Source: Synechocystis sp. PCC 6803 substr. PCC-P (GTDB taxonomy: Bacteria; Cyanobacteriota; Cyanobacteriia; Cyanobacteriales; Microcystaceae). Taken from it: a stretch of 32,000 nucleotides of DNA. The translations under genes were made by a program, and so were the position numbers. The notes under the pieces were generated by a model. That model had not been told where the DNA came from. It worked only from the letters and a program-made list of their open reading frames with translations, and did no database searches. Of the stretch, positions 1-26,263 are shown one piece after another. How positions within the stretch are numbered: the first letter of the stretch is position 1; the number at the start of each line of letters is the position of its first letter. The DNA is taken from NCBI RefSeq assembly GCF_000284455.1, contig NC_017039.1:3060001-3092000 (forward strand), given 5' to 3'.

Positions 1-1350
1 TCAGCACTGACTGGCGAATCGGTGCCCGGCACAGTTAAGCCTGGAGATACCATTCTTGCAGGCATGATCAACCAATCGGGTGTGTTGACAATTCGAGTCA
101 CCAAACTATTTAGTGAATCTTCGATCGCCAAAGTGCTCGATCTGGTTGAAAATGCGTCTAGCAAAAAGGCATCCACCGAGAAATTCATCACCCAATTTGC
201 CCGCTACTACACTCCCGTTATCGTCTTTCTTTCGTTAGCCGTTGCCCTGTTACCACCTCTGTTCATCCCTGGGGCGGATCGAGCCGATTGGGTTTATCGT
301 GCCTTGGTTCTGTTGGTGATTTCCTGTCCCTGTGGATTGGTGATCAGCATTCCGCTCGGCTATTTTGGTGGCATTGGGGGAGCCGCCAAACATGGGATTT
401 TGATCAAGGGATCTACCTTTTTAGACTCCCTCACGGCCGTTAAAACCGTTGTGTTTGATAAAACTGGAACCTTAACCAAAGGCACATTTAAGGTTACTCA
501 GGTCGTTACCAAAAATGGATTTTCTGAATCAGAATTGTTAACCCTAGCCGCAAAAGCCGAATCCCATTCCACTCATCCCATTGCCCTATCGATCCGCGAA
601 GCTTATGCCCAGTCGATCGCTGACTCTGAAGTGGCCGACTACGAAGAAATTGCTGGGCATGGCATTCGAGCCGTTGTGCAAAATCAAGTCGTCATTGCGG
701 GCAATGATCGCCTTTTGCATCGAGAAAAAATCGATCATGATACCTGTGACGTAGCCGGTACAGTGGTTCATCTCGCCGTAGATGGGCGCTATGGGGGCTA
801 TATTCTGATTGCCGACGAAATTAAGGAAGATGCGGTTCAAGCGATTCGAGACCTAAAACGCATGGGAGTTGAAAAGACCGTGATGCTGACCGGGGATAGT
901 GAAATAGTAGCTCAATCCGTTGCCCAGCAAATTGGTTTAGATGCCTTTGTTGCTGAATTATTGCCAGAAGAAAAAGTCGATGAAATTGAGCAACTGCTAG
1001 ATCCTTCAGGTAAAGCAAAACTGGCATTTGTAGGAGATGGTATTAATGATGCCCCCGTGATTGCCCGAGCCGATGTCGGTATAGCCATGGGGGGATTGGG
1101 CTCCGATGCTGCCATTGAAACAGCGGACGTGGTGTTGATGACCGATGCGCCCTCGAAGGTGGCCGAAGCGATTCATGTGGCCCGCAAAACTCGTCAAATT
1201 GTTGTACAGAACATTGTCCTAGCCCTAGGGATTAAAGCACTTTTTATCGCCCTGGGCACCATTGGCTTGGCAACCCTCTGGGAGGCGGTGTTTGCGGATG
1301 TGGGAGTAGCACTGTTAGCGATTTTGAATGCTACTCGGATTGCTAAGTAA
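1..1350 (+). CDS. ziaA: P1B-type heavy-metal (Zn/Cd-class) transporting ATPase, C-terminal ~450 aa; 5' end lies outside the window
   Basis: The frame is open from nt 1 (SALTGESVP). Motifs seen: CPC membrane metal motif (VISCPCGLV), DKTGT phosphorylation site (VFDKTGTLT), HP motif (STHPIA), GDGINDAP hinge. The symbol rests only on remembered synteny with copMRS in PCC 6803. Confidence 0.85.
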   Translation, partial: SALTGESVPGTVKPGDTILAGMINQSGVLTIRVTKLFSESSIAKVLDLVENASSKKASTEKFITQFARYYTPVIVFLSLAVALLPPLFIPGADRADWVYRALVLLVISCPCGLVISIPLGYFGGIGGAAKHGILIKGSTFLDSLTAVKTVVFDKTGTLTKGTFKVTQVVTKNGFSESELLTLAAKAESHSTHPIALSIREAYAQSIADSEVADYEEIAGHGIRAVVQNQVVIAGNDRLLHREKIDHDTCDVAGTVVHLAVDGRYGGYILIADEIKEDAVQAIRDLKRMGVEKTVMLTGDSEIVAQSVAQQIGLDAFVAELLPEEKVDEIEQLLDPSGKAKLAFVGDGINDAPVIARADVGIAMGGLGSDAAIETADVVLMTDAPSKVAEAIHVARKTRQIVVQNIVLALGIKALFIALGTIGLATLWEAVFADVGVALLAILNATRIAK

Positions 1351-1376: not shown

Positions 1377-2753
1377 TTAGGTGAGATTTTTGGTACACTC
1401 TCGGGACTGTTGGTATGGTGGCGGACATATTGATAAGCGAATGGTGAATAAACTTCCCTGACCCAATTCACTCTCTACAGTCAAAACACCTTGATGCTTA
1501 ACGGCGATCGCCTGGGCAATGGCAAGGCCTAATCCTGCCCCTCCCCGTTGTCGAGACCGGGCCGTGTCCACCCGATAAAAACGGTCAAAAACCCGGCTTT
1601 GATTCTCCGAAGCAATGCCAATGCCCGTATCTTGGACTTTGATGATGGCTTGCTGTTTATCGGTCTCAAGCATGACGGTTACCTCGCCCCCCGTTGGGGT
1701 GTAGTGAATGGCATTACTGATTAAATTACCCACCAAACGATAAAGCTGTTCTTCTTCTCCCCTGACCCAGATATTTGCTTGATTGTCTAACTTCGCAGAT
1801 AACAATACCCCAGCGGCGATCGCCAAACTGGCAAATTCTTCGGTTAAATCTTCAACTAAATCATTGAGACAACAAAGGGTAAACTGGGTCGGATTAACTG
1901 TTGTTAAATCCATGCGGGAGAGGAGTAATAAATCATGGATTAAATGGCTGAGACGATAATTTTGTCGTTTTAAGGTTTGCAAGGTGCTATGGGTTTCTTC
2001 AGCATTAGGTTCTGCATTTAATGTCGTTTCCAACGTTGCCTGAATCGCCGTAATCGGTGTACGTAATTCGTGGGCAATATCAGCGGTGAACTGCTGGATT
2101 TGTTGGTAGGAACGATAAACCGGCTCCATGGCTAAGCCTGCTAACCACCAACTAGCACCACCGACCACAATCATCACAATGGGTAAACCCCAAACTAAAA
2201 AGCCTTGGATCGTGTGCAAATGATGGTCATATTCCACCAAGGAGCGCCCCACCTTTAAATAGCCCCAAGGTTCACCAGTGGTGGTTTTTAACAGCAAAGA
2301 AACTTGGTGATAGCGGTTCCCTTTTTGATCCGTTAATGGTTTTTGACGGGTGGTTTCCCGCTCAAAGGCTAAGCCTGGGGGATTTTCCCCTGCCGTTGCT
2401 AATAATTGACCGTTTAAGTCCAAAAACCGGACATAATAGCCCGGCTGTTGGGTTGCGTTGAGAATATGCCTCCGTTGAGGCGACCTAGGGCAAGCTACTG
2501 TACCTAAGCAAAGATTAGGCAAAATTTGTTTAACTGAGGGCTCTAACTGCCCTGGTTGTTGTAATAGTGGTTCCAATCCATCATGGAGAGTCCCCGCTAG
2601 GGAAGTAAGCTCTTGATCCAGCGATCGCCAATGATCCTGGGAAGTCATTTCATAGACCGCTAGGCCACAAAGACCCAAAATTAGCCCCATGACCCCAGCG
2701 TAATAACTGGCTAAACGCCAACGGGATAGATTGAATAATCTATTGTTCTGCAT
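1377..2753 (-). CDS. copS: Copper-responsive sensor histidine kinase (CopS/Hik31-like)
   Basis: 458 aa. Two TM segments flank a periplasmic loop. H-box IAHELRTPITAI, N-box LISNAIHYT, G-boxes VQDTGIGI and GGAGLGLAIA. 14-nt overlap with the upstream response regulator gene. Confidence 0.85.
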   Translation of the reverse strand: MQNNRLFNLSRWRLASYYAGVMGLILGLCGLAVYEMTSQDHWRSLDQELTSLAGTLHDGLEPLLQQPGQLEPSVKQILPNLCLGTVACPRSPQRRHILNATQQPGYYVRFLDLNGQLLATAGENPPGLAFERETTRQKPLTDQKGNRYHQVSLLLKTTTGEPWGYLKVGRSLVEYDHHLHTIQGFLVWGLPIVMIVVGGASWWLAGLAMEPVYRSYQQIQQFTADIAHELRTPITAIQATLETTLNAEPNAEETHSTLQTLKRQNYRLSHLIHDLLLLSRMDLTTVNPTQFTLCCLNDLVEDLTEEFASLAIAAGVLLSAKLDNQANIWVRGEEEQLYRLVGNLISNAIHYTPTGGEVTVMLETDKQQAIIKVQDTGIGIASENQSRVFDRFYRVDTARSRQRGGAGLGLAIAQAIAVKHQGVLTVESELGQGSLFTIRLSICPPPYQQSRECTKNLT

Positions 2754-3438
2754 GGGTTGGATGGGGCTGAAAACGATACCCTAAGCCATACACGGTTTCA
2801 ATGAGATTGCCATGGCTATACTCCTCTAATTTTCGCCGGAGCAAACGCACCTGGGCCGCTACGACATTACTGGTAGATTCCGCCGACAGCGCCCACAGTT
2901 GATTTTTAATCTGTTCACTACTAAGAATTTGCTGGGGATGTTTCATGAAGTATTCCAAAAGCTGGAACTCCTTGGCTGTGAGGGTAATTCTTGCTTGCTC
3001 TGGGGTTACTACCGCAAAAGTTCCATAATCCAACCACCATTGCCCCACCTGTAACTGCTGGGGTTGCAATTCTGGCGATCGCCGTTGCAAAGAACGTAAA
3101 CGAGCTAATAGTTCCGCCATGCCAAAGGGCTTGATTAAATAATCATCGGCCCCTGCATCTAAACCCTCAACCCGATCTGCAATTTGATCCTTCGCTGTCA
3201 GCATTAGAATCGGTAAAGAACTCCTTTGGCCCCGGAGTTTTTGACACAATTCCAACCCTGATAACCCCGGCACCATCCAATCAAAAATAGCCAGGGTATA
3301 GTTCACCCAGCCCTGGTCTAAATAGCTCCAGGCTAGGTTGCCGTCCTGCACCCAATCAACTACGTAATTTTCGCGACGGAGAGCTTTTTCCAGCGCCATT
3401 CCTAGATCAGGCTCATCCTCCACCAGCAACAGTCTCAT
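2740..3438 (-). CDS. copR: OmpR/PhoB-family response regulator (CopR/Rre34-like)
   Basis: 232 aa. Receiver domain (LLVEDEPDL, AIFDWMVPGLSG, LIKPF) plus a winged-helix C-terminus (TVYGLGYRF). Lies 6 nt downstream of copM. Confidence 0.85.
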   Translation of the reverse strand: MRLLLVEDEPDLGMALEKALRRENYVVDWVQDGNLAWSYLDQGWVNYTLAIFDWMVPGLSGLELCQKLRGQRSSLPILMLTAKDQIADRVEGLDAGADDYLIKPFGMAELLARLRSLQRRSPELQPQQLQVGQWWLDYGTFAVVTPEQARITLTAKEFQLLEYFMKHPQQILSSEQIKNQLWALSAESTSNVVAAQVRLLRRKLEEYSHGNLIETVYGLGYRFQPHPTHAEQ

Positions 3439-3444
3439 GCTTCC

Positions 3445-4035
3445 TCACTGACCATACCAGTTTTGATACCATTGCTTCATTTGCTTAATTTCCGCACTTT
3501 GGGAGCGGATAATGTCATCCATCAATTTATCCATCTCCGGCCGTTCCGTATTGGTTTTTAAATTGCTAGCCATCATCACTGCCATTTGATGGTGGGGAAT
3601 CATCTGACGAATAAATTCCCGGTCAAAGTTTTGGGCGGTGGCCAAAGCCTCTAAATCCATCGCCATCATGCCGTGACCTTGGTGCATTCCCATCATTCCC
3701 TGGCTCGACAAAGCAGGCACTGGTCGTTTAAACCATTGCTGATACCAGGTTTTCATTTCTTTAATTTCCCTTTCCTGGTCTCGGATAATATTCCGTGCCA
3801 ACTTTTTGAGTTCAGGATGTTCGGCTTTTTGTAGAGCCATCTCCGCCATATCAATGGCATCTTGATGGTGGGGAATCATCATTTCGATAAAACTTTGGTC
3901 TGTCCATTGCATGTGCATGCCTTGTTGGGCCATCATCTGCGGTGGAGATTGATTGCGATAAACCGCTGTTACCCCAGCCGCTGAACCACTGAGGAGTAGT
4001 CCTGCCAACCCATATATCCAGAATTGATTACCCAC
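3445..4035 (-). CDS. copM: Periplasmic copper-binding DUF305 protein (CopM-like)
   Basis: 196 aa. GTG start with AGGAGG 11 nt upstream. N-terminal hydrophobic signal/anchor. Two DUF305 repeats (MIPHHQDAIDMA, MIPHHQMAVMMA). Met/His-rich linker QGMMGMHQGHGMMAM. Confidence 0.85.
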   Translation of the reverse strand: MGNQFWIYGLAGLLLSGSAAGVTAVYRNQSPPQMMAQQGMHMQWTDQSFIEMMIPHHQDAIDMAEMALQKAEHPELKKLARNIIRDQEREIKEMKTWYQQWFKRPVPALSSQGMMGMHQGHGMMAMDLEALATAQNFDREFIRQMIPHHQMAVMMASNLKTNTERPEMDKLMDDIIRSQSAEIKQMKQWYQNWYGQ

Positions 4036-4103: not shown

Positions 4104-4256
4104 TTAGAGCTCATTTATAAAGTCTTGTAATGGATAGCAAGTAGGAGAAGAAAAAAAGGAAAACTAAGAGTAAGAGCAGAAGGAGACAAAGAGCATGAAA
4201 AGTCGACAGCCTATGAAACAGACCTGAGCGATGCAGAATGGGCAATAGTTGAATCA

Positions 4257-4580
4257 ATGATTCCTCCCGCAAAGCCCGGAGGACACCCACGAACCACAGA
4301 TATGCGAGCGGTTTGTAATGGTATTTACTACCAACTAAAAACGGGTTGTCAATGGGCAATGTTACCCCATGACTTTCCTCCTAGTAGCACGGTCTATAGC
4401 TATTACCGTAAATGGCAACGTCATGGCGTGTGGGAAAGGCTCAATCTAAGGCTGCTGGAGCAATGCCGCCTCCAGAGTGGCAAGAGCCTTCAACCTAGCG
4501 TAATAGCGGCAGATAGCCAATCGGTAAAAACCACCGAAAAAAGGGGGAAGTCTACGGTTTTGACGGAGGTAAGAAGGTGA
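4257..4580 (+). CDS. IS transposase OrfA (N-terminal DUF4096-type HTH part)
   Basis: Contains LSDAEWAIVESMIPP...GGHPRTTDMRAVCNGIYYQLKTGCQWAMLP, typical of IS5/IS1031 transposase N-termini. The frame is open upstream to about 4161 without an in-frame ATG. Confidence 0.8.
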   Translation: MIPPAKPGGHPRTTDMRAVCNGIYYQLKTGCQWAMLPHDFPPSSTVYSYYRKWQRHGVWERLNLRLLEQCRLQSGKSLQPSVIAADSQSVKTTEKRGKSTVLTEVRR

Positions 4581-5005
4581 AAGGACGAAAGTGTCACCTA
4601 ATCGTCGATAGTCTGGGCTTAGTCTTAAAAGTGATAGTGACCGAAGCAAATGCAAGTGAACGCATCGTCACAGCTTATGCTCTGATGAGTTTGCTTGAAG
4701 AAGGAACTCAACTCCTCGAGTCTGTCAAGAGCATGTTAGTAGACCAGGGTTATCGAGGTGATACCTTTGGGTTAGCCATCTGGCTCTTAATTCAAGCCAA
4801 AGTCCAGGTGATTAGTCGTTCAGGGAAGTCTTTTGAGATCTTACCAAAAATATGGATTGTCGAGAGGACGTTCGGTTGGCTGAACTGGTATCGTCGTTTG
4901 AGTAAGGATTATGAGCATCTACCAGAAATGAGCGAAGCGGCTATTTATGCCGTGATGACTCCCATTATGTTGCGTCGTCTTTCTGCTACTTCTACCACTT
5001 TATAA
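4577..5005 (+). CDS. IS transposase OrfB (DDE catalytic part), in the -1 frame relative to OrfA
   Basis: Contains KGRKCHLIVDSLGL...DQGYRG...VERTFGWLNWYRRLSKDYE (DDE_Tnp_1 signature). This frame is open from 4517 and overlaps OrfA across an A6G run at 4537-4543. Confidence 0.8.
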   Translation: MKGRKCHLIVDSLGLVLKVIVTEANASERIVTAYALMSLLEEGTQLLESVKSMLVDQGYRGDTFGLAIWLLIQAKVQVISRSGKSFEILPKIWIVERTFGWLNWYRRLSKDYEHLPEMSEAAIYAVMTPIMLRRLSATSTTL

Positions 5006-5013
5006 ATGGGCTC

Positions 5014-5139
5014 TTAGGGCACTTTTCATCAAGCCCATTTCCCTTGCCACTTGGCTTATGGGCTTTCCAGATTGTTCTACTATTTTTACTGCTTCTGATT
5101 TTTGCTCCTTTGTAAATTGTCGTCTTGTTTTTTCGTCAT
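5014..5139 (-). pseudogene. Relic of an IS3-family orfA (HTH_Tnp_1-type) N-terminus, frameshifted and truncated
   Basis: The minus strand reads ATG ACG AAA AAA, then one frame over EKTRRQFTKEQKSEAVKIVEQSGKPISQVAREMGLMKSAL. This fits the RRxFTxExKxEAVKxVxxSGxxISxVARExG pattern of IS3/IS911 OrfA proteins. One extra A in the A6 run (5128-5133) would join the ATG to this frame. The similarity stops near the IS5-type insertion. Confidence 0.55.
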
Positions 5140-5185
5140 TTGAACATTCTCCTTGATTTTCGACTCTTTGAATGTGTCCATTTTT

Positions 5186-5476
5186 TCAGTCATGGTCAAT
5201 ATTTTGGATAGTGACTTTGGGATCGGGATTGTGACTAAAACACTCTGCTTTTGTTTCAATTTTTTTGAGTTGGGCGATCGCCATCGAGCAGGGTCTGCCA
5301 TAGACTTGCCGTACCCGTTCACTGGCAAGGGTTAAAGATTTCTGTGATCGCTGCACAAAATCTGCCAATTCGTAGGTTTGACCAGACTGAAAATATTGAT
5401 TGACCACTGTGGAGGGTGAATAAAACTGATCCTCTGAACCATCGGGCCAAACGATGTCAAATGTAACTTCGGGCAT
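5186..5476 (-). CDS. Small Nit1C-cluster protein (MSMEG_0570-family nitrogen-starvation response protein)
   Basis: 96 aa. Starts 3 nt after the stop of the AIR-synthase-like gene. Size and position match the conserved small ORF of Nit1C clusters. Family assignment is from memory of the cluster architecture. Confidence 0.65.
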   Translation of the reverse strand: MPEVTFDIVWPDGSEDQFYSPSTVVNQYFQSGQTYELADFVQRSQKSLTLASERVRQVYGRPCSMAIAQLKKIETKAECFSHNPDPKVTIQNIDHD

Positions 5477-5479
5477 TGT

Positions 5480-6448
5480 TTATGAATCTCCGGTAAAGCC
5501 AGTGAGGGGGTTTTGCTGCAAATCCCAAAATAGTTGGGACTCTGAACCTAGTTTAAGGGTGAGATTATGACCCGGTTGTATCGTGGCGATCGCCTCTGCT
5601 ATTAAACCTTCAGCCTGAAAACAAGCCTTGACCGTTTTGACGAACTGAGGACGCACGCTCAGCAAAAAACCATAACTCGGAAAACTAAGTAGCCATTGCC
5701 TAAAATCTAGACCCGCCGGACAGGAAATGGCATCAAGGTCGAGGATTGCGCCACATTTTGATGTTTCTAAAAGCATTAATGCTGTACCAATAATGCCGCC
5801 CATACTGACATCTTTCCCCGCATCACATAGCTTGTTTTCGGCCAGGTAGGGTAAAAGATCCCAGTGTTTTTGCAAAGTTTCTGTTTCTGCCATCGTTGCT
5901 GCATCCCAGCAATAGGGCGCATTGGGTCGCGGTTTGCCTTGAAAATTGCTTACAAGAATCAGGCGATCGCCTACCTGGGCATCAAAGCTGGTGATTAAAG
6001 ACTTTGCCCGACCTAAAATCGCCACTCCCAAGGCATCATAACCACTGTGGGTATTGGTATGGCCGCCCACAATGGGCACATTAAATCGAGCCGAAGCGGC
6101 TTGCATCCCTGCCCAAATTTGCTGAGCTTGGTCAGAAGACTTACTCCATAGGGCATCCACCACGGCGATCGGCCTGCCCCCCATGGCATAAATATCACTG
6201 ACATTGACCAAAACACTGCACCACCCTGCAAACCAAGGATCTTGGGTAATTAAACTGGGAGCCATCCCCTCAGCCGCAAGGAGTAGATAGCCATTCTCGT
6301 CTGGAATTGCAGCGCAATCATCACCTAATCGAATCGCCTCACCATCCCCGATCAATCGCTGTTGACCTTGACGGGATGCCAATTGAATATCCTGCTTGTG
6401 CAAAATGCCAAGGGTTTGCTGTAGTTCAATAATTAAGTCAGTTAACAT
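5480..6448 (-). CDS. AIR synthase (PurM/ThiL/HypE superfamily)-like protein, Sll0787-type
   Basis: 322 aa. N-terminal GDDCAAI motif and GGHTN motif typical of the PurM ATP-grasp-like superfamily. 9-nt gap to the upstream GNAT gene. Confidence 0.8.
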   Translation of the reverse strand: MLTDLIIELQQTLGILHKQDIQLASRQGQQRLIGDGEAIRLGDDCAAIPDENGYLLLAAEGMAPSLITQDPWFAGWCSVLVNVSDIYAMGGRPIAVVDALWSKSSDQAQQIWAGMQAASARFNVPIVGGHTNTHSGYDALGVAILGRAKSLITSFDAQVGDRLILVSNFQGKPRPNAPYCWDAATMAETETLQKHWDLLPYLAENKLCDAGKDVSMGGIIGTALMLLETSKCGAILDLDAISCPAGLDFRQWLLSFPSYGFLLSVRPQFVKTVKACFQAEGLIAEAIATIQPGHNLTLKLGSESQLFWDLQQNPLTGFTGDS

Positions 6449-6457
6449 AACCGAGAT

Positions 6458-6976
6458 TTAAGAAACCTGCAATAAAGCAAGATCGAGCTTCGGTCGACTA
6501 TAGACCACGGGGGGATAAAAATCTAAGTCCGCTTCCATTAAATGATGGGGGCGATCGCAGATCTCAATTTCCTGAAGGGAATGCCAATGTTGTCGCTGAA
6601 AAAAACGCACATTTTGCAATTGCACCGTCGCGAAAAACTTAGTACAACCCCAACCATGGGCAGCGGTAACAGCTTTATAAATCAAACCCTTGCCAATGCG
6701 ACCCACTCGCCGGTAATTTTGATGTACTCCTAGCCGACCGCCATACCAGACATTCGGTTCATTTTCATAAATCCGCACCGCACCTACTACTGTAGGTTTA
6801 CCAGGAGTCTCCGTATCTAGGGCAACAATTGGATAGGCAAACTGATCCGTCTCATCAAAATCATGTCCGGCAAAAATGCCCTGTTCCTCACAAAAAATTG
6901 CTCTGCGTAGGGCAAAATACCCTTGAATTTCTGCCGCAGATTCTGCCAGTTCAAACTGAAAACGATTGTTTGACAT
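6458..6976 (-). CDS. GNAT N-acetyltransferase, Sll0786/MSMEG_0567-type
   Basis: Acetyl-CoA motif YRRVGRIGKGL. I prefer the internal ATG (MSNNRFQ, 6976). The track ORF start at 7036 would overlap the radical SAM gene by 47 nt. Confidence 0.8.
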   Translation of the reverse strand: MSNNRFQFELAESAAEIQGYFALRRAIFCEEQGIFAGHDFDETDQFAYPIVALDTETPGKPTVVGAVRIYENEPNVWYGGRLGVHQNYRRVGRIGKGLIYKAVTAAHGWGCTKFFATVQLQNVRFFQRQHWHSLQEIEICDRPHHLMEADLDFYPPVVYSRPKLDLALLQVS

Positions 6977-6989
6977 CGTAAAAAGCTCT

Positions 6990-8078
6990 CTATTTTGCAA
7001 ATGTTGATAATGCTGAACAAGCGCCACATTTCGCACAGCCGGCCTTCATATCTACTGAAGAAATCTGCGATTGCTTAATGATTGTGCCGACCCTCTGATA
7101 CAGGGCAAACATAAAATCACTGTCCGGCGCAGGGTGATTTGCTAAAGGTGTTTCGGAAATGGGGACGAAGGGAACAACAAAAGGGTAAACGCCCATATTG
7201 ACCAGCTTTTCCGAGGCTTCTACCAAAGTTTCAAAGCTATCTCCCAGCCCTGCTAAGAGATAGGTGCTGACCTGTCCCCAACCGAAGACTTTAACGGCGG
7301 CTTCGTAAGCTTCGTAATAGTAGGAAACTGGAACCTCGGCTTTTCCGGGCATAATTTTGGCACGAACATCCGGATCAACCGCTTCGAGATGCATTCCCAA
7401 ACTATCGACGCCAGCGGCTTTCATGCGCTCGAACCAAATAAAATCATCGGGGGGTTCACACTGGGCCTGAATGGGAATATTGACCCGCGCTTTAATGGCT
7501 GCTGCACATTTTGTAAGGTAGGCTGCACCACGATCGCCTGAATTGGGTGTCCCCGTTGTCATGATCACCTGTTCGATACCGTCTAACCGGACTGCGGCTT
7601 CTGTGACCTCGGCTAACTGCTCCGGTAATTTACGGGTGATCGTGCGACCTGCATCAAGGGATTTTTCTATGGCGCAAAATTGACAAACAGTGGACTCATC
7701 GCGATAACGTATACAGGTTTGCTGAACCGTCGTCGCTAAAACATTGTTGCTGTGCAGTAGCGCAATGTGCGAATAGGGAATACCATCTGCTGTCTTCAAA
7801 TCATAGAATTTAGGTTGACGGGGCAGGGCGATCGCCGCAATCTCTTCGTCCCCTTTGCTCAAAACCGTCTTTGGGGGCATGGATGCAAGGTTGATACTGT
7901 AGGGCGATGCCGCAGCGGTGGAAGTATAGATTGGCACCATCACCGTCGTCCCATCCACCGTCACTGCCCGATGATCTGAAGGCCCTGCACCGCCTTTGCG
8001 CCCAAGATCTTTGGCATTTGGATCCACCAGTCGCAACCCTTTGGATTGCAGTTCTGTGATGAGACGTTGCTTATTCAT
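6990..8078 (-). CDS. Radical SAM protein, MSMEG_0568-type
   Basis: 362 aa. Cys triad C122-X9-C132-X2-C135 (TCIRYRDESTVCQFCAIEK). TIM-barrel-like GGE-type region (IMTTGTP). C-terminal CAKCGAC. Confidence 0.8.
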   Translation of the reverse strand: MNKQRLITELQSKGLRLVDPNAKDLGRKGGAGPSDHRAVTVDGTTVMVPIYTSTAAASPYSINLASMPPKTVLSKGDEEIAAIALPRQPKFYDLKTADGIPYSHIALLHSNNVLATTVQQTCIRYRDESTVCQFCAIEKSLDAGRTITRKLPEQLAEVTEAAVRLDGIEQVIMTTGTPNSGDRGAAYLTKCAAAIKARVNIPIQAQCEPPDDFIWFERMKAAGVDSLGMHLEAVDPDVRAKIMPGKAEVPVSYYYEAYEAAVKVFGWGQVSTYLLAGLGDSFETLVEASEKLVNMGVYPFVVPFVPISETPLANHPAPDSDFMFALYQRVGTIIKQSQISSVDMKAGCAKCGACSALSTFAK

Positions 8079-8108
8079 GTCGCTGGGATAATCCTTAAAT
8101 TTTTGTAC

Positions 8109-9149
8109 TTAATGGCTAAAAATCGGATTGTTGGGCAATGCCTCAATGGTTTCCGTCAGCTCTGGATCACTTACTGCCGGAATAGCATTGGGCGTAACTG
8201 GGTTGGCTTCTAGGGCTGACCAAGGCTGATTGTTGAGGGTTAGTTGTAATAGATCCGGTCGGGCATAATGTCCCACCGAATCCATCATGCGTTTGCGTTT
8301 AGCGATGAGGGAAAAATCTAAATCGGCGATCGCCAACCCTTCTCCCTCAGCAATTGGCTCACAGAGATGCTTTCCTTCGGGGCTAATAATTGCCGTATAA
8401 CAACCACCACTCAAGGCTTGATGCATTTTTTCGTCGGTGGTAATTTGTAACTTTTGCTCCGCTGTCAACCAACCCGTTGCATTAATCACAAAACAGCCGG
8501 ATTCCAAAGCATGATGCCGCATGGTCACTTCCATTTGATCCGCGAAAATCTGACCCACCATCGATCCGGGGAATTGCCCACAGTGGATTTGTTCATGTTG
8601 CGCCATCAGCGCATAACGGGCTAAGGGATTGTAATGTTCCCAACAGGCCAAGGCTCCCAAGCGTCCAACCGTGGTATCTACCGTCCTCAGACCTGCACCA
8701 TCCCCTTGTCCCCAAACCATCCGTTCATGGTAGGTGGGCGTGATTTTGCGACGTTTTAGCACCAGCGCACCATCTGCATCAAAAATCAGTTGTGTGTTGT
8801 ACAGCGAGCCTTCTTCGCGCTCATTAACCCCTAACACCACGACCATTCCATGGGTTTTCGCGGCTTGGGCGATCGCCTGGGTGACTTTCCCCGGCACAGT
8901 AACGGCTTCTTGATAAAGCTTTAGGTGACTTTTCCCCATCAAAACCGGCGGTTCAACAAAGGAAAAATAAGGGTAATAAGGCACAAAAGTTTCAGGAAAA
9001 ACAATCAGTTCTACCCCTTTCTTTGCCGCATTGGCGATCGCATCGAGAACTTTCTCCATAGTCCCTTGTTGACTAAAAAGAACAGGACTAATCTGTGCCG
9101 CTGCTGCCCGAATATTTTTTGTATAATTCAGCATGATTTTTCCCAGCAC
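8109..9149 (-). CDS. Nitrilase (branch 1, Nit1C/Nit6803-type)
   Basis: 346 aa. Glu-Lys-Cys triad contexts [20 protein letters not shown]. The track start is GTG at 9149; an ATG at 9134 (MLNYTK) is an alternative. Confidence 0.9.
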
Positions 9150-9178
9150 AACGACTGGAATAGTTTCAGAAATAAAAA

Positions 9179-9243
9179 ATGATTTGAAAACAAGTGATTG
9201 ATATATTAGACTTCAAAAATCAAAAACAAAATTTTCAAATCAT
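9179..9243. repeat. 12-bp perfect inverted repeat ATGATTTGAAAA / TTTTCAAATCAT separated by 41 nt
   Basis: Read directly at 9179-9190 and 9232-9243. It lies in the 137-nt spacer between the Sll0783-like gene and the nitrilase gene. Function unknown. Confidence 0.6.
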
Positions 9244-9286
9244 CCCTCCTATCAATAATTCACCAAATATTTAATCAAGCACATTT

Positions 9287-9769
9287 TTACATTGTCCAAG
9301 TATCAAGAATAAACGCACCATCCCTACGGTGCATCAAGATTAAATCCATCACATCTAGGGGATTAATCGGACGAATACCGGGGATTAGAGAAGGCTCGCC
9401 ATGACCATAAAGTGCTTGCAGTGCAAAGCGACAAGCATAAACCTTACCCCCTGCTTCCATGATTTTTACAATACGCTCATTCATGGTCAGGTGACCCGGA
9501 AAACCTTCATCCCCAAGCTTAGGAAAACCCCTTTGTACACCGAGAGTAACACCGGGACCATAGAGCAAAACAGATGTTTCAAAGCCTTTTTTAATTAAGC
9601 GGCTAGCTTGCATTAAATTTACTAAGCCAATGGAGCCTTCAAACGCCACTGTATGAAAAGTAATCAGCGCTTTTTCACCGGGTTCAGCTTGGACATCAGG
9701 AAAAACTTTTTCCTCGTAATCTACTAAGAAATCACCTGTTTGGTGAGCTGGCTTAGTTACCTCTGGCAT
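9287..9769 (-). CDS. Sll0783/MSMEG_0572-family nitrogen-starvation response protein
   Basis: 160 aa. First gene of the minus-strand Nit1C operon, preceded by an NtcA-type promoter. Family assignment comes from remembered cluster architecture. I see no obvious catalytic motif. Confidence 0.7.
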
Positions 9770-9823
9770 GGTTGTAGTTCCTTAAATTCAAATTCTGATT
9801 TGACTTGAGATTAGTCATGTATC

Positions 9824-9865
9824 AATGTAGAAGCGAAGTTTCCTTATTCTTGTATCATTTGTCAC
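9824..9865 (-). promoter_or_regulatory. NtcA-type activated promoter for the Sll0783-like operon
   Basis: The minus strand reads GTGACAAATGATAC (9865-9852), then exactly 22 nt, then TACATT (9829-9824). This fits GTN10AC and the -10 form TAN3T with class II spacing. It predicts a TSS near 9817. Confidence 0.6.
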
Positions 9866-10148
9866 AAAAAAATAGTTTTAATTGAAAGTCATAGGTTTAA
9901 CCATTCTTAATTTCTTGTATGAAGATTATCTTTTCTTAATAATCTTAGCCAGAAAAATGCTTCTTATCTAGATACAGTAAGAGTTTCAAGGCTTGGAATT
10001 TTCCTGGAAATGGATTTCTGTTCAGTATGTCCGCTTAAGATTTAAATGATTAGACACCTATCTAAATCAACAGGTCTGTCTATGTAAAGCTTATAAATAC
10101 AAGACTATTGCGATGTTTCCTATTAATAGAATCAGAGATCATCAATTT

Positions 10149-10190
10149 GTAGCGAAACATACAAGTGTTAGAAATTTCGAGGCTTACAGT
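10149..10190 (+). promoter_or_regulatory. NtcA-type activated promoter for the flavin oxidoreductase gene
   Basis: Perfect consensus GTAGCGAAACATAC (GTA-N8-TAC, 10149-10162), then exactly 22 nt, then TACAGT (10185-10190). It predicts a TSS near 10197, 37 nt before the ATG. Confidence 0.65.
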
Positions 10191-10233
10191 TGATGATTAT
10201 CAGGAAAGATAGAGTTCAATACAGGTAGATAAT

Positions 10234-11484
10234 ATGAAAAAAAGCCACTATTCCGTCATTATTGTCGGTGGAGGACAGGCGGGCTTAGCGATTAGTTATC
10301 TCCTAAAACAAGAAAGCATTGACCATGTTATTTTCGAGAAAAATCAAATTGGTCATGCTTGGCGTAATCAACGTTGGGATTCTTTTTGTTTGGTTACGCC
10401 TAATTGGCAATGTCGGTTACCCGGCTTTCCCTATGCGGGGGGTGATGATCAGGGTTTTATGCTGAAGGACGAAATTGTCCAATATCTTGAGGATTATGCG
10501 GCATCTTTCCAAGCTCCTATCCTTGAGGGGGTAGAGGTTTCTAAGCTGAGTCAACGGACTGATGCTTTTGAGGTGATTACCAGCCAAGGAATCTACACCG
10601 CTGATCAAGTGGTGGTTGCTACTGGGGGCTACCATACGCCAAAAATTGCGGCGATCGCCAAAAAACTACCTCCCCATATTGTCCAGTTACATTCGGTGGA
10701 CTACAAAAATCCGGAAACCTTACCAGATAGAATTTTATTAGTTGGCACAGGTCAATCGGGCTGTCAAATTGCTGAAGACCTACATCTAGCAGGTAAAACC
10801 GTCCACCTTGCCACAGGCAGCGCACCCCGTTCACCCCGCCGCTACCGAGGGAGAGATGTGGTCGAGTGGTTAGAGTTGATGGGTCATTATGATCTGCCCA
10901 TTGATGAGCATCCCCAAAAGGAAATGGTACGCCACAAAACAAACCACTATTTAACCGGTCGTGATGGTGGCAGAGAAATTGATCTGCGTCAATTCGCCCT
11001 TGAGGGCATGCATCTCTACGGACGGCTCAAGGATATTGATGGAAATCAAATTCTATTTGCCGATAATCTCAAGGAAAATCTCGATCAAGCAGACGCAACG
11101 GCCGCCAGAATTAAACAAAGCATTGATGAATATATTGCCAAAAACCAGCTTGATGCGCCCATCGAAGCACCCTATCAGCCCGTTTGGGAACCAACTTCCA
11201 TACCCCTTACCCTAAATATTGATGAAATTGATGCGGTTATTTGGTCCACTGGTTTTAATTTTAATTATGCTTGGGTCGATGTTCCTGTATTTAATTCGAT
11301 GGGGGAACCTCTACATAATCGGGGTGTAACTAATGTGGCGGGGCTATATTTCTTGGGTTTACCCTGGTTATATACTTGGGGTTCTGGGCGATTTTCAGGG
11401 GTTGCCCGTGATGCGGAATATTTAGCGGAAAAAATTAGAGAAACACTGCCCGCTAATCAAATAAATCCTTGTACGGTGGCTTGA
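10234..11484 (+). CDS. Flavin-dependent oxidoreductase/monooxygenase, MSMEG_0569-type (Nit1C Fmo)
   Basis: 416 aa. Two dinucleotide-binding motifs: VGGGQAGLA (FAD) and VGTGQSGCQIA (NAD(P)H). Divergent from the Nit1C operon. Confidence 0.85.
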   Translation: MKKSHYSVIIVGGGQAGLAISYLLKQESIDHVIFEKNQIGHAWRNQRWDSFCLVTPNWQCRLPGFPYAGGDDQGFMLKDEIVQYLEDYAASFQAPILEGVEVSKLSQRTDAFEVITSQGIYTADQVVVATGGYHTPKIAAIAKKLPPHIVQLHSVDYKNPETLPDRILLVGTGQSGCQIAEDLHLAGKTVHLATGSAPRSPRRYRGRDVVEWLELMGHYDLPIDEHPQKEMVRHKTNHYLTGRDGGREIDLRQFALEGMHLYGRLKDIDGNQILFADNLKENLDQADATAARIKQSIDEYIAKNQLDAPIEAPYQPVWEPTSIPLTLNIDEIDAVIWSTGFNFNYAWVDVPVFNSMGEPLHNRGVTNVAGLYFLGLPWLYTWGSGRFSGVARDAEYLAEKIRETLPANQINPCTVA

Positions 11485-12566
11485 TAAATGGCTTGGTAGC
11501 GATTTTTGGCGTTGAGTTTATGGAGGGTGCCATTAACATGAAACTTAACGGTACTTTCGCTGATGTGAAGCTCCTCGGCGATATCGCGATCGCGTAAACC
11601 TTGGGCTAATAGGCTGACGATTTCCTTTTCCCGCTCCGAGAGGAGATGTTTGTTGAGCTTGATGTTTTGAAACCCGTCATAGGGGAGTTGCAGCGAAATT
11701 TGCAGGATTGATTGATTTACACTGCTTTGACTCCTAAATTCACCGCCAACATGGTGGGCTAAAAATTCTATTTCTTTAAAAGGCGATCGCCCATCTGTGT
11801 TGAAGGCTTCTGACACGGATGCTTCGACAATGGCTTCGATGGTGACCGAAATCTCCCCATAGATGAGACGGCAATAATTACAGGAGAGTCGATTAAAAAT
11901 TTCTGTGGTTCTGATCAATAGATATGCAAGGGTGGGAGAGAGCTTTTTTTCTGTGCCGATTAGGGTCAGCTTTGTCTGAGATAACAGCCTTGCCAAAACG
12001 TCCGGTAAAGGGATTTGATCGTCTAAAAATTGGGTTGTATTAATCGTATTTGTTTCGCTCTGGAGTTGTCGGACGGCATCAATGGCGATCGCCACTGCCA
12101 TACAGAGAACTTGTAAAACTTCCAGAAATTCTGCGACAAAGGGAGCCTCGCTAAAGACAGCCAAGACACCAATCACACGGTCATGGCCTACCAATGGATA
12201 ACCGGCGAAACCGCGAATATTATTGGCGATCGCCCAGTCACGATCCTTTACCCAGGTTTCATTGGCGAGATGATTGCTTAAAAAAGGAATACAGCTTTGG
12301 GCAATTTTACCGACCTTATAAGCCCCCATCGGCACACGGGCAAAACTACCATTCGTACTGGTATGTAAGCCTGACGAAGCAACCAGTTTTAAACTCGCAC
12401 CATCAGGCTCTGTTAACCAAATACGTGCAAACACGCAATGAAAATCATGGATTAATGCTTCGGTGATTTCTTTGGTAATCGCCGTTGTGTCAAGGCAACC
12501 AGAAATGCGCTTGCTAGTCGTATTTACTTTTTGGAGATCAAAAATTAGCTGGGCAGAATCTAACAC
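11457..12566 (-). CDS. GAF-domain LuxR-family transcriptional regulator
   Basis: 369 aa. N-terminal GAF-like domain (IRGFAGYPLVGHDRVIGVLAVF). C-terminal LuxR HTH (LSEREKEIVSLLAQGLRDRDIAEELHISESTVKFHV). GTG start, so the N-terminus is uncertain. Confidence 0.8.
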   Translation of the reverse strand: MLDSAQLIFDLQKVNTTSKRISGCLDTTAITKEITEALIHDFHCVFARIWLTEPDGASLKLVASSGLHTSTNGSFARVPMGAYKVGKIAQSCIPFLSNHLANETWVKDRDWAIANNIRGFAGYPLVGHDRVIGVLAVFSEAPFVAEFLEVLQVLCMAVAIAIDAVRQLQSETNTINTTQFLDDQIPLPDVLARLLSQTKLTLIGTEKKLSPTLAYLLIRTTEIFNRLSCNYCRLIYGEISVTIEAIVEASVSEAFNTDGRSPFKEIEFLAHHVGGEFRSQSSVNQSILQISLQLPYDGFQNIKLNKHLLSEREKEIVSLLAQGLRDRDIAEELHISESTVKFHVNGTLHKLNAKNRYQAIYQATVQGFI

Positions 12567-12803
12567 GAGCGGCTCAGAACACTATCAAATCCACGCTATC
12601 AAAGGAAGCTATCTTGAAAAGTGCTGCAAGCAACATTATGGACACCGAACCATAGGATAAATTTTCGCCATGATCCCCGGGTTTATTGATAGTTCAAAAC
12701 TGCTGCGACTCAAAATCTGAAGTCATTATATGGACAAGGCGCAGAAATTTTATCCCTATCTCAACGATCATGGCCTTAAAACGTGTTTGGAAAGTTTTAT
12801 TCC

Positions 12804-12888
12804 GCCCCCTAAATCGACCCACTAAAGCTCCGGCAATACTGGGGGACTTTCACTCAGTTTCCCCCCAAATTTGGGGGGCCAGGGGGGC
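12804..12888. repeat. G/C-run palindromic element including the perfect palindrome CCCCCCAAATTTGGGGGG
   Basis: C5 at 12805-12809, G5 at 12841-12845, C6 at 12861-12866, G6 at 12873-12878, G6 at 12882-12887. The 18-bp perfect palindrome spans 12861-12878. GCCCCCT (12804-12810) is near-complementary to AGGGGGGC (12881-12888). Confidence 0.6.
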
Positions 12889-12937
12889 TTTTCAAACAGG
12901 CTCTTAGATTACATAAACTACATTTTGGGCTGTGGCA

Positions 12938-13405
12938 TTATTCTGGAGTATTGATCAAACCAGGGTGATCTAATGGGCGATCGCCGGGGGCATCCCAGAA
13001 GAAACGACGCTCGGATTCAGCAATGGGTTTGTCGTTAATACTCGCTTCCCGACGACGCATTAAACCCGCTTCATCAAATTCCCAATTTTCATTGCCATAG
13101 GCTCGATACCATTGACCCGCATCATCCTGCCATTCGTACTGAAATCGTACTGCAATTCGATTTTCGCCAAACGCCCACAGCTCTTTCACCAGACGATAAT
13201 TTAGCTCTTTATCCCACTTGCGACGCAAAAACTCACGGATTTTTTCCCGACCTTGGAATACTTCCGCCCGATTACGCCAAAAACTATCCTCGGTATAAGC
13301 CATACAGACTTTATCTGGGTTGCGACCATTCCATGCATTTTCTGCCATCCGTACTTTGGCGATCGCAATTTCCTTAGTGAAGGGAGGAACTAAAGGTGTT
13401 GTCAT
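12938..13405 (-). CDS. DUF1348 / NTF2(SnoaL)-like fold protein
   Basis: 155 aa. Contains [13 protein letters not shown]...FWRNR...[16 protein letters not shown]...[12 protein letters not shown], characteristic of the DUF1348 family as I recall it. Confidence 0.7.
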
Positions 13406-13676
13406 GATTAAAATTTCCCAATAATTTTAGAAGAGACGGCGGCTTACGAATTTGTTTACTCTCATTGTTGATGCAGGCAAAACCTACGAATTCATCTATG
13501 GTTGTTGACCCAATAGTGACAGAAGAAGTGTCCGAAAGACCACTAATGGCTAGAACTCCGCATTTGGTGGCCGCCTCATATAAACCAAGGGCTAATTCTT
13601 TGAGTAGTTCCCTTTCAATGCGTTGTTCAGAAAGTCGAATAGATTGAAGAATCGAGTCGGGAATTGAAATTTGCAT
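13374..13676 (-). CDS. UPF0175-like (antitoxin-type) small protein with divergent C-terminal half; possibly degenerate
   Basis: The N-terminus [34 protein letters not shown] matches the usual cyanobacterial UPF0175 opening. The remainder is atypical. It overlaps the DUF1348 start by 32 nt. No cognate toxin gene is adjacent. Confidence 0.35.
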
Positions 13677-19038: not shown

Positions 19039-19091
19039 TTCAAATTATTGAAAAATAAAATATTCATAGTTAAAACTGTAAATTATAGACA

Positions 19092-19961
19092 TCAAATACC
19101 ACTTCGAGCCACCATGAAAATTTGACTTGCTCTTGGTGAAGCAACATAACGCCAATGCCATGGTTCATAACTTACTCCTTGACTATTGTTAGGAGGAAAT
19201 GAAAGTTCAAAACCATACTGATTAGCATTTCTAGCTAACCATTGATAAGCAGATGTATTTTCAAAATTTATTTTTAAATCATTTGCTGGATTAGCACCAT
19301 CTCCTATATCTAAAGCATAGCCAGTGTGGTGTTCACTGTGTCCGGGAGGGGCACTAAACCTTGCCGCTGCTTCTTTACCACCTTTTCTTTTAATTTGATT
19401 TTGAAATAAAGCATCCTGAGAGGCAATAGAACGAAATCCAGAAATAATAGTTAATCTTACTCCTTGAACTTGAGCATCAGCTTGCATCTTTTTAAAAGCA
19501 GTGGCTGCTTCTTGATCTAAAGATTCACTGCGGCCGTAATATTCACCTACTTTTACTAATCTTTGCTGGCTATTTTCAGGGAAAGAATAATGACCTAAAT
19601 TAGTTTTAACCGCAATATTGTTGGGAACTTCTCTTGATCCTTGCTGTTCTGCTAGCGGGGATAATTGTTCATAATCTGGTGGAAGTCCTGGCAATAGGGG
19701 GCTAGTCTGGATTTCGGGGACTTCAGTTATTAATGGTTCGAGATTAGTTGGAGTCGGAGTGGGAACCGGAAGAGAGGAAAGCTCTCTATCTTCAAGGGGG
19801 GGGGGAGATGGAATTTTTTCTTGATTATGAATGCCACTAGTTTCGTTAATAGATAATTGTTTAGCATTAGGTAAGTACCACCAACCATACAACATTCCCA
19901 CTAACAGAGCGGCAACAAAAAAGTTTACCAATTGAAAGTTATTTTTTAAAAATTTTAGCAT
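19092..19961 (-). CDS. VanY-type D-Ala-D-Ala carboxypeptidase (peptidase M15B), membrane-anchored
   Basis: Zn motifs SEHHTGYALD and EPWHWRY, plus SGFRS. N-terminal TM segment FFVAALLVGMLYGWWYL. I prefer the ATG at 19961, which has AAGGAAA just upstream. The track start at 20009 would overlap the kinase gene by 31 nt. Confidence 0.85.
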   Translation of the reverse strand: MLKFLKNNFQLVNFFVAALLVGMLYGWWYLPNAKQLSINETSGIHNQEKIPSPPPLEDRELSSLPVPTPTPTNLEPLITEVPEIQTSPLLPGLPPDYEQLSPLAEQQGSREVPNNIAVKTNLGHYSFPENSQQRLVKVGEYYGRSESLDQEAATAFKKMQADAQVQGVRLTIISGFRSIASQDALFQNQIKRKGGKEAAARFSAPPGHSEHHTGYALDIGDGANPANDLKINFENTSAYQWLARNANQYGFELSFPPNNSQGVSYEPWHWRYVASPRASQIFMVARSGI

Positions 19962-19978
19962 TTTCCTTAGAATCAAGT

Positions 19979-22413: not shown

Positions 22414-22504
22414 TTAGTATCAATAAAAACATGGCTAGAGGATCAAGTTTGGTCTACTCCAGCCATGTTTAAGCAGAAATTAATTGCCTAAGATAAAAAT
22501 AATC

Positions 22505-25500: not shown

Positions 25501-26263
25501 CTCCCAAGGCACCGCCATAATCGATTTTTCCGGCACTTCTCCCCAGGGCGATCATAATTTCAATACCCCCAAAGCGGTGGTACAAGCAGTGGTTTTGTAC
25601 GTTTTCCGCACCCTGGTACAGGACCCCATTCCCCTCAATGCCGGTTGCCTCAAACCGTTAAAAATTATTATTCCCCCCGGTTGCCTCCTCGATCCCCAAT
25701 ATCCCGCCGCCGTGGTGGCCGGTAATGTGGAAACTTCCCAGGCGATCGCCGACACGTTATACGGAGCGTTGGGTTGTTTGGCCGCCAGCCAGGGCACCAT
25801 GAATAACCTCACCTTTGGAGATGGTCAATATCAATACTATGAAACCATTGCAGGAGGCAGTGGCGCTGGCCCTAGTTTTGCTGGTTGTGACGCAGTGCAA
25901 ACCCACATGACTAATTCCCGCCTGACAGATCCAGAAATCTTAGAAAGTCGTTTCCCGGTGTTGTTGGAACAATTCGCCATTCGGCCCCACAGCGGTGGCG
26001 CAGGTAAATTTCCCGGTGGCAACGGCATTGTGCGCCAGTTTAAGTTCCTTCAACCTCTATCAGTAGCTATTTTGGCTAATCGGCGGCGGGTGGCACCCTT
26101 TGGGTTGGCCGGGGGAGAAGCAGGAGCCGTGGGGGAAAATTGGTTACTGCGTCGTTCTGGGGATAAGGTACGGTTAGATAGTTGCGCCCAGGTGGATGTG
26201 GCCCCTGGCGATCGCCTAATAATTAAAACACCGGGGGGCGGAGGTTATGGCCATCGAGATTGA
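22505..26263 (+). CDS. ATP-dependent 5-oxoprolinase-type fused hydantoinase A/B protein
   Basis: About 1250 aa. N-terminus [13 protein letters not shown], then HyuA-type and HyuB-type halves. The ATG at 22505 (MTKFF) is preferred over the track start at 22484. Confidence 0.9.

Follow-up and report, generated by a model that had tools for sequence, protein, structure and literature searches.

The Nit1C cluster of Synechocystis sp. PCC 6803: gene content, conserved neighbourhood and a possible role in nitrogen salvage

Gene content and identity of the locus

The DNA analysed here (the window) is a stretch of 32,000 nucleotides from Synechocystis sp. PCC 6803 substr. PCC-P (NC_017039.1, positions 3,060,001 to 3,092,000), and its subject is the nitrogen-starvation nitrilase cluster, Nit1C, at 5186-11484. 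The listing of open reading frames (ORFs) gives six minus-strand ORFs within 5186-9769 and one divergent plus-strand ORF; all seven were matched end to end by their own Nit1C model in NCBIfam, far over the curated cut-off (Table 1), and an earlier reading made from the letters alone (the sequence-only reading), which had placed a seven-gene Nit1C cluster here, was borne out with exact coordinates. The Pfam superfamilies concur (CN_hydrolase, Radical_SAM, Acetyltransf_1, AIRS with AIRS_C, and Pyr_redox_3/FMO-like, where FMO stands for flavin-containing monooxygenase). The features that define the family are all present, namely a nitrilase of the Nit6803 / subfamily 1 clade (TIGR04048), its six partner families, and a compact single-strand arrangement B-C-D-E-F-G with short gaps that has the flavoprotein gene at one of its ends.

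The nitrilase ORF is 100% identical over all 346 amino acids (aa) to PDB entry 3WUY (Nit6803 of Synechocystis PCC 6803), and the product of the first gene matches, also at 100% identity, what NCBI lists as sll0783 of Synechocystis sp. PCC 6803. Because of these two matches it is virtually certain, as far as sequence can tell, that the locus is the Nit1C cluster of this strain; it was correctly spotted, is already known and is the reference locus of the family. The operon is named sll0783-0784-0785-0786-0787-ssl1464 in the literature (PMC10094980). Nit1C was defined in 2005 by Podar, Eads & Richardson on seven loci, Synechocystis PCC 6803 among them, with an identical order of six genes, the flavoprotein on the opposite strand in Synechocystis and an insertion sequence (IS) element downstream of the Synechocystis locus (PMC1199592). 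The cluster of Podar 2005, the NCBIfam families TIGR04042-TIGR04049 and the nitBCDEFGH genes of Pseudomonas are the same system as this locus, which agrees with the published description in the content and order of its genes, in its divergent flavoprotein and in the IS that lies downstream. In the seven core genes there is no difference; the regulators differ from Pseudomonas, being NtcA and a neighbouring GAF-LuxR protein in Synechocystis and the sigma-54 activator NitA in Pseudomonas. The function has been open since 2005: substrate and product, which the sequence-only reading had also given as unknown, were still called so, and the function obscure, in papers of 2021 and 2024 (PMC7815647, PMC11049912), and full-text literature searching up to 2026 returned no later report of either. 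What has been re-identified here is the best-studied copy of the cluster, and the functional question is no more testable from it than from the existing literature.

Table 1. Coordinates of the Nit1C genes, putative promoters and adjoining features in the window
Feature	Position	Strand	Basis
sll0783 / NitB, 160 aa	9287-9769	-	TIGR04044 (MSMEG_0572/Sll0783), 287 bits (cut-off 110)
sll0784 / NitC, Nit6803 nitrilase	8109-9149	-	TIGR04048, 592 bits (cut-off 502.6)
sll0785 / NitD, radical SAM (S-adenosylmethionine) protein	6990-8078	-	TIGR04043, 610 bits (cut-off 304); PF04055
sll0786 / NitE, Gcn5-related N-acetyltransferase (GNAT) family acyltransferase	6458-6976 (ORF to GTG 7036)	-	TIGR04045, 246 bits (cut-off 68)
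sll0787 / NitF, PurM superfamily, aminoimidazole ribonucleotide (AIR) synthase-like, ATP-utilising	5480-6448	-	TIGR04049, 487 bits (cut-off 321)
ssl1464 / NitG, small protein, 96 aa	5186-5476	-	TIGR04042 (MSMEG_0570), 129 bits (cut-off 80)
Flavoprotein NitH, class B FMO-like	10234-11484	+	TIGR04046, 656 bits (cut-off 498)
Putative NtcA-type promoter of sll0783	9824-9865	-	Pattern match: GTGACAAATGATAC, 22 nt, TACATT; ~55 nt before sll0783 ATG
Putative NtcA-type promoter of the flavoprotein gene	10149-10190	+	Pattern match: GTAGCGAAACATAC, 22 nt, TACAGT; 44 nt before ATG
Weaker NtcA-like architecture upstream of sll0782	12593-12634	-	Pattern match: GTN10AC, 22 nt, TAN3T
sll0782, regulator with GAF and LuxR-type helix-turn-helix domains	11457-12566	-	PF13185 GAF_2, PF00196 GerE
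DUF1348/SnoaL-like protein, occasional cluster member	12938-13405	-	PF07080, 215 bits
IS4/IS5-type insertion sequence at the operon 3' end, outside the system	4106-5014	+	18-nt inverted ends, 94% complementary

The minus-strand genes are closely packed, with gaps of 137 bp (nitB-nitC), 30 bp (nitC-nitD), 9 bp (nitE-nitF) and 3 bp (nitF-nitG). The ORFs of nitD and nitE overlap by 47 bp if nitE starts at the GTG at 7036 and are separated by 13 bp if it starts at the ATG at 6976; the ATG is likely to be the true start because the TIGR04045 match begins there (residue 25 of the long ORF). From the order of gene numbers the flavoprotein gene would be slr0801; the gene divergent from sll0783 is printed as 'slr0821' in the NtcA paper (PMC5714215). 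At the 3' end of sll0783, within the last ~16 codons, a 10-bp stem-loop followed by a T-rich tract (9312-9335, minus strand) precedes the 137-bp gap, which is AT-rich, upstream of the nitrilase gene, and the stem-loop might attenuate read-through or stabilize the sll0783 transcript. A generic sigma-70 promoter and terminator scan of 4900-13600 gave counts at or below shuffle expectation, with terminator-like matches no commoner than chance, and therefore constitutes no evidence either way on internal signals. An Rfam scan of the whole window gave no riboswitch or small RNA match at gathering thresholds.

Conserved core and recurrent neighbours

NitB relatives were scanned in one genome per species and were found in at least 588 species representatives from several phyla, of which the best 80 loci by NitB match were compared by tblastn with the window proteins. 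These loci are mostly cyanobacterial, together with loci labelled Rhizobium, Polyangiales, Phycisphaerales, Hydrocarboniphaga and Bacteroidota, several of which are from metagenome-assembled genomes (MAGs). The gene-neighbourhood and co-occurrence comparison across genomes, which the sequence-only reading had put forward as a check, upheld the architecture: genes B-C-D-E-F were colinear on a single strand in all 58 related loci that hold all five. The flavoprotein gene (H) was always near the core genes, placed upstream and divergent in 39 related loci, upstream but in the same orientation in 21, and downstream in 8. Median identities to the Synechocystis proteins were 84% for NitB, 74% for NitC, 68% for NitD, 64% for NitH, 61% for NitE, 56% for NitF and 48% for NitG, the value for NitB being biased upwards by the choice of loci as best NitB matches. 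NitB is nevertheless unusually constrained, to judge from these alignments, with at least 79% identity across phyla among the relatives listed.

Clustering of neighbouring ORFs in the best 80 loci yielded just three further recurrent families, a glycosyltransferase of family 4 (GT4), a GAF-LuxR regulator and DUF1348; no conserved transporter and no conserved aldoxime dehydratase were among them. The glycosyltransferase belongs to the MSMEG_0565 family (TIGR04047, 470-490 bits) and lies between nitF and nitG in 26 of the 43 informative loci (those with at least 3 kb of sequence past nitF). Podar 2005 had already noted some beta-proteobacterial clusters with an inserted glycosyltransferase (PMC1199592). 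This extended form is not the one found here: nitF and nitG are 3 bp apart, and tblastn gave no match to an MSMEG_0565-type glycosyltransferase better than E 0.07 in the 32-kb window. The description of the cluster as complete in the sequence-only reading therefore holds for the canonical seven genes and does not extend to the glycosyltransferase common in related clusters; the Synechocystis cluster is the short form. The gpr cluster of Mycobacterium smegmatis (MSMEG_0565-0572) consists of the same families, shares induction by nitrogen starvation through GlnR and an NADPH-related phenotype, and adds the MSMEG_0565-family glycosyltransferase and an amidase. Its PurM-like part is modelled as the MSMEG_0567 C-terminal domain, and a separate NCBIfam model exists for this GNAT-fused PurM-like protein; in Synechocystis, by contrast, the genes are separate and the 32-kb window is without the glycosyltransferase.

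Homologues of the sll0782-type GAF-LuxR regulator were present in 23 of the 80 loci, in 19 of them within 1.5 kb of NitH, and DUF1348 homologues in nine, in four of which the gene is placed between nitC and nitD. Because the sll0782 regulator and the DUF1348 gene are recurrent neighbours, the functional neighbourhood in Synechocystis probably reaches to ~13405, past the seven-gene interval.

Two observations concern individual relatives. Among the species-representative genomes scanned, the cluster closest to that of Synechocystis (L001; NitB 95%, NitC 83%) has the same layout (R-H-B-C-D-E-F-G); the contig that carries it bears the label of a Sphingobacterium thalpophilum MAG and is probably a mis-binned cyanobacterial one. 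Two Pseudanabaena loci (L071, 4900-5805, and L074, 10012-10917) carry, between nitF and the glycosyltransferase gene, a gene for a protein of ~300 aa that weakly resembles class I SAM methyltransferases (best E 4e-6, far under family cut-offs), a further candidate for a lineage-specific tailoring gene.

Nitrogen control, protein features and possible functions

The 464-bp divergent region between sll0783 and the flavoprotein gene holds two NtcA-type promoters, both correctly oriented. As matches to a pattern (GTN10AC, 22 nt, TAN3T) whose relaxed form would turn up 2.6 times by chance over the whole window, such sites are weak evidence; two of them in one intergenic region are consistent with the two overlapping NtcA peaks published for this bidirectional promoter from chromatin immunoprecipitation sequencing (PMC5714215). 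According to published data, nitrogen starvation induces the operon (PMC10094980) and ammonium represses it. Sll0782 was reported as a newly identified NtcA target with NtcA binding upstream (PMC5714215), and its expression is, by published data, repressed by ammonium; the NtcA-like site near sll0782 sits 27 nt upstream of its GTG start. This site is a hint of a feed-forward loop in which NtcA would reach Nit1C by way of Sll0782; no description of such a loop was found in the literature consulted on Nit1C.

The reading with the best support, to which an even chance is given, is that the cluster is an NtcA-driven nitrogen-salvage module in which NitC frees ammonium from a nitrile, probably a cyanide-derived one. 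Under nitrogen limitation active NtcA would act on the two back-to-back promoters of class II type in the divergent region, and probably on the sll0782 promoter too, and the seven proteins would be directed at one small C-N compound that is membrane-permeant or intracellular. NitC would be the nitrogen-releasing step (nitrile + 2 H2O to carboxylate + NH4+); Nit6803 is an active nitrilase, as its structure and the kinetics in the literature attest. The true nitrile, or its acceptor, would be made, conditioned or recycled by the six other proteins, namely the radical SAM protein, which may hold two clusters, the GNAT, the ATP-dependent enzyme of PurM type, the NAD(P)H-dependent oxygenase of FMO type, the DsrE-like Sll0783 with its cysteine, and ssl1464. 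The demand of the FMO for reduced pyridine nucleotide would give rise to NADPH-linked phenotypes. The order of the steps, the parts played by NitB and by NitD to NitH, and the identity of the physiological nitrile are what we infer.

Among possible nitriles the cyanide-derived ones are best supported, because homologous clusters are needed for growth on cyanide. Mutants of P. pseudoalcaligenes in nitA, nitB or nitC do not grow on cyanide or aliphatic nitriles (PMC5939895), which substantiates the link to cyanide use in Pseudomonas that the sequence-only reading had named, and growth on cyanide is likewise lost when nitC is knocked out in P. fluorescens (PMC7815647). In M. smegmatis, nitrogen starvation raises expression of the cluster more than 500-fold via GlnR, and Nit1C is abundant in marine picocyanobacteria, enriched in low-nitrogen waters. 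The lack of a conserved adjoining transporter fits a permeant or internal substrate.

Several points weigh against nitrogen salvage. NitC homologues hydrolyse free cyanide poorly and are of modest efficiency even on their best artificial nitriles, and the authors of that work doubt that nitrogen provision is the sole role (PMC7815647). A route from cyanohydrin by nitrilase would need none of the other six proteins, yet these are strictly co-conserved, and the GT4 inside the extended clusters looks biosynthetic, not catabolic. The phenotypes in Synechocystis and M. smegmatis are redox-related rather than nitrogen-source phenotypes: Sll0783 is required for polyhydroxybutyrate (PHB) accumulation and NADPH balance in Synechocystis (PMC3901256), in agreement with the link to nitrogen starvation and PHB in the sequence-only reading, and the GlnR-induced gpr cluster of M. 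smegmatis affects peroxide resistance and NADPH. The literature consulted on Nit1C contains no test of cyanide or nitrile use by Synechocystis. The cluster is tied to growth on cyanide, PHB yield and peroxide resistance. A solution would bear on the nitrogen cycle, cyanide bioremediation and bioplastic production. The additions made here are modest and may guide experiments: the linkage of sll0782 and DUF1348, the glycosyltransferase as an optional member, the set of cysteines in NitD and the rejection of an analogy between Sll0787 and HypE.

That analogy came from the sequence-only reading, in which the cluster was suggested to make a nitrile as well as hydrolyse it so as to remobilize internal nitrogen, with NitC then freeing ammonium; the nitrile would come from a HypE-style dehydration of a carboxamide by the PurM-like protein, or from N-hydroxylation and an oxime route by the flavoprotein and the GNAT. 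Sll0787 has both AIRS domains (PF00586, 76.7 bits; PF02769 AIRS_C, 64.7 bits), belongs like HypE to the PurM superfamily, and could in principle yield a nitrile through phosphorylation of an amide oxygen, given general knowledge of HypE, PurM and PurL. HypE carries a C-terminal cysteine that bears the carboxamide. Sll0787 does not: its C-terminus reads ...DLQQNPLTGFTGDS and ends in ...TGFTGDS, and its last cysteine is residue 276 of 322. Family-level similarity to HypE is also lacking, with no match to the NCBIfam HypE model at E <= 10 and no HypE among the PDB matches at E <= 0.01, so that the proposed relationship was rejected. Methanogenesis marker 2 (254 bits) is a much nearer family in NCBIfam, followed by ThiL and SelD, and the protein's best solved-structure matches by sequence are ThiL, PurM, SelD and PurL.

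The flavoprotein has the two dinucleotide-binding sites that had been described for it, as two GxGxxG motifs (GGGQAG at residue 12, G12, and GTGQSG at residue 171, G171). An FMO of class B type can oxygenate heteroatoms, and a partial, weak match to Lys/Orn N-monooxygenases (38.6 bits) was found, which lends something to an oxime route, as does the induction of the cluster by nitrogen starvation to a nitrile-making pathway in general. However, the closest solved structures are type II FMOs (4USQ, 4USR, 4A9W), the protein is also near ArsO in NCBIfam, N-hydroxylases are not its nearest kin, and NitE matches the generic Acetyltransf_1 family; the pairing of the two proteins for N-hydroxylation and acylation was not supported as a specific proposal. 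No aldoxime dehydratase was found among the annotated or scanned ORFs of the window, which again speaks against the oxime route, as does its absence from the conserved neighbours. A path from amide to nitrile to acid would moreover cost ATP, and an amidase reaches the same end directly. Making and hydrolysing a nitrile and the oxime route are thus possible solely at the level of superfamily chemistry, nothing was found that favours them, and this use of the cluster is regarded as decidedly unlikely.

NitD belongs by sequence to the radical SAM superfamily (PF04055, 49 bits, cut-off 29.5) with a variant motif, C122-X9-C132-X2-C135, in place of the canonical CX3CX2C. The motif is invariant in 15 diverse homologues, as are four further cysteines, C207 and the C-terminal C348-X2-C351-X2-C354, which suggest a second Fe-S cluster; in the N-terminal domain GR(K/R)GGAGPSDH is nearly invariant. 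No solved-structure relative of NitD was found by sequence or profile search of the PDB, and its only match to a functionally characterized enzyme family was to the lipoyl synthase LipS2 (42 bits, far under the cut-off).

For NitB, sequence and profile searches of the PDB gave nothing significant, and the score against Pfam DsrE was 13 bits, under the threshold of 22.7. The AlphaFold2 (AF2) model of Sll0783 has a predicted local distance difference test (pLDDT) score of 68, and its top 10 PDB folds were all either DsrE/DsrF/YchN proteins or a cage designed from such a protein, including 1JX7 and 2HY5; the best match was 3MC3 (E 1e-5), with top Foldseek template modelling (TM) scores of 0.5-0.65 for a model of only this pLDDT. 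The predicted DsrE/YchN-like fold agrees with the YchN-like fold given to ORF1 by Podar 2005 (PMC1199592). The sole cysteine, C113, is invariant and lies at a predicted strand-to-helix junction. Sll0783 may be like the DsrE/TusD/YchN sulfur-relay proteins in its predicted fold and in having a single invariant cysteine, a candidate equivalent of the DsrE active-site cysteine; unlike the DsrE and TusD relays it is without DsrF/H or TusBC partners, and a sulfur role is a prediction.

The AF2 model of ssl1464 is confident (pLDDT 89) and has no PDB fold match (best E 0.5, TM ~0.3). Invariant in the alignment are Met1-Pro2, P11-D12, YSPST (19-23), V25, L48, A51, S52, R54, V55, G60 and C63, the motif being given as YSPSTVV in the feature listing. 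The invariant Met1-Pro2 had prompted a comparison with the tautomerase superfamily, which was rejected as the confident model has no beta-alpha-beta fold match in the PDB.

These features bear on the main rival to nitrogen salvage, a biosynthetic and possibly sulfur-dependent pathway. In this alternative Nit1C makes a small sulfur-containing or redox-active metabolite, glycosylated where GT4 is present, that serves as a redox buffer in nitrogen starvation. NitD, with its two putative clusters, would insert or rearrange atoms, perhaps sulfur delivered by the DsrE-like NitB; the PurM-like protein and the GNAT would activate and acylate, the flavoprotein would oxygenate or reduce, and the nitrilase would turn an intermediate nitrile into a carboxylate. 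Such a set of enzymes (radical SAM, GNAT, PurM-type, FMO, and GT4 in over half of the informative loci) typifies tailoring and biosynthetic pathways, no conserved transporter adjoins it, the knockouts affect the NADPH pool, PHB and peroxide resistance, and a metabolon of this kind was deemed conceivable by Jones et al. (PMC7815647). The predicted fold and invariant cysteine of NitB, the four cysteines of NitD besides the SAM-cluster motif, its LipS2 match and a weak YpdA match of the flavoprotein point the same way. No product has ever been detected, however; GT4 resembles MshA and BshA in a generic way, the matches to LipS2 and YpdA are far under family cut-offs, and the need for nitC and nitB in growth on cyanide points to nitrogen release. 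The glycosyltransferase is missing here and in many other clusters, so glycosylation is not essential. Biosynthesis of such a metabolite is considered unlikely. A more specific form, very doubtful at present, is that Nit1C is a sulfur-dependent biosynthesis and not primarily nitrile catabolism, with sulfur installed by NitD and NitB into a novel redox metabolite of low-molecular-weight-thiol type, which the PurM-like protein, the GNAT and, where present, GT4 would finish and which ssl1464, through its invariant cysteine, possibly handles. If this is true, a metabolite of thiol type would account for the phenotypes in NADPH, PHB, peroxide and cyanide tolerance that are reported from several phyla.

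The strong conservation of NitB also bears on the proposal that the nitrilase is mainly a filament scaffold without catalytic role, the phenotypes arising from Sll0783-dependent redox regulation and not from nitrile chemistry. It was raised by Jones et al. because of poor kinetics and filament formation (PMC7815647); deletion of sll0783 alone disturbs NADPH and PHB (PMC3901256), and NitB, not NitC, has the highest median identity of the members (84% vs 74%). Nit6803 and Nit11764 are active nitrilases with the catalytic site intact, and strong purifying selection was reported for the Nit1C nitrilases (PMC1199592), which makes a mere scaffold highly improbable; nitrogen salvage, with NitC as a catalyst, is the reading retained.

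Flanks, HIP1 sites and the rest of the window

The window holds 34 copies of the highly iterated palindrome HIP1 (GCGATCGC), where 0.27 would be expected. Of these, nine fall within the cluster, at 1.43 per kb compared with 0.97 per kb elsewhere in the window, and the GC content of the cluster equals that of the window. The sequence-only reading had taken HIP1 sites throughout the operon as a sign of long residence despite mobile flanks; density and GC content support long residence in a HIP1-rich genome, although a donor that was itself a HIP1-rich cyanobacterium is conceivable. The flanks proved mobile on one side only, where the IS at 4106-5014 lies; the other flank consists of the regulator, the DUF1348 gene and a PAS-GGDEF gene. 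The transposase of this IS is split over two frames (DUF4096, then DDE_Tnp_1_2), which suggests a programmed frameshift or a decayed copy, and no other transposase was found among the scanned ORFs of the window. No HIP1 site occurs between 3083 and 5273.

The left flank (1377-4035, minus strand, and 22-1350, plus strand) holds genes for a P-type ATPase, which runs off the window start, and, adjoining the IS, a histidine kinase, an OmpR-type response regulator and a DUF305 protein; the last three are what we take to be the copper-responsive hik31 / rre34 (CopR) / CopM operon. Further to the right, an FHA-domain ABC transporter, a VanY-type D-Ala-D-Ala carboxypeptidase and an SH3-bearing Ser/Thr kinase are encoded in a row (16666-21496, minus strand), followed by a fused hydantoinase/oxoprolinase A+B protein of 1259 aa and a CYTH protein (22484-26263, plus strand); the genes of these two intervals are not linked to Nit1C in other genomes.

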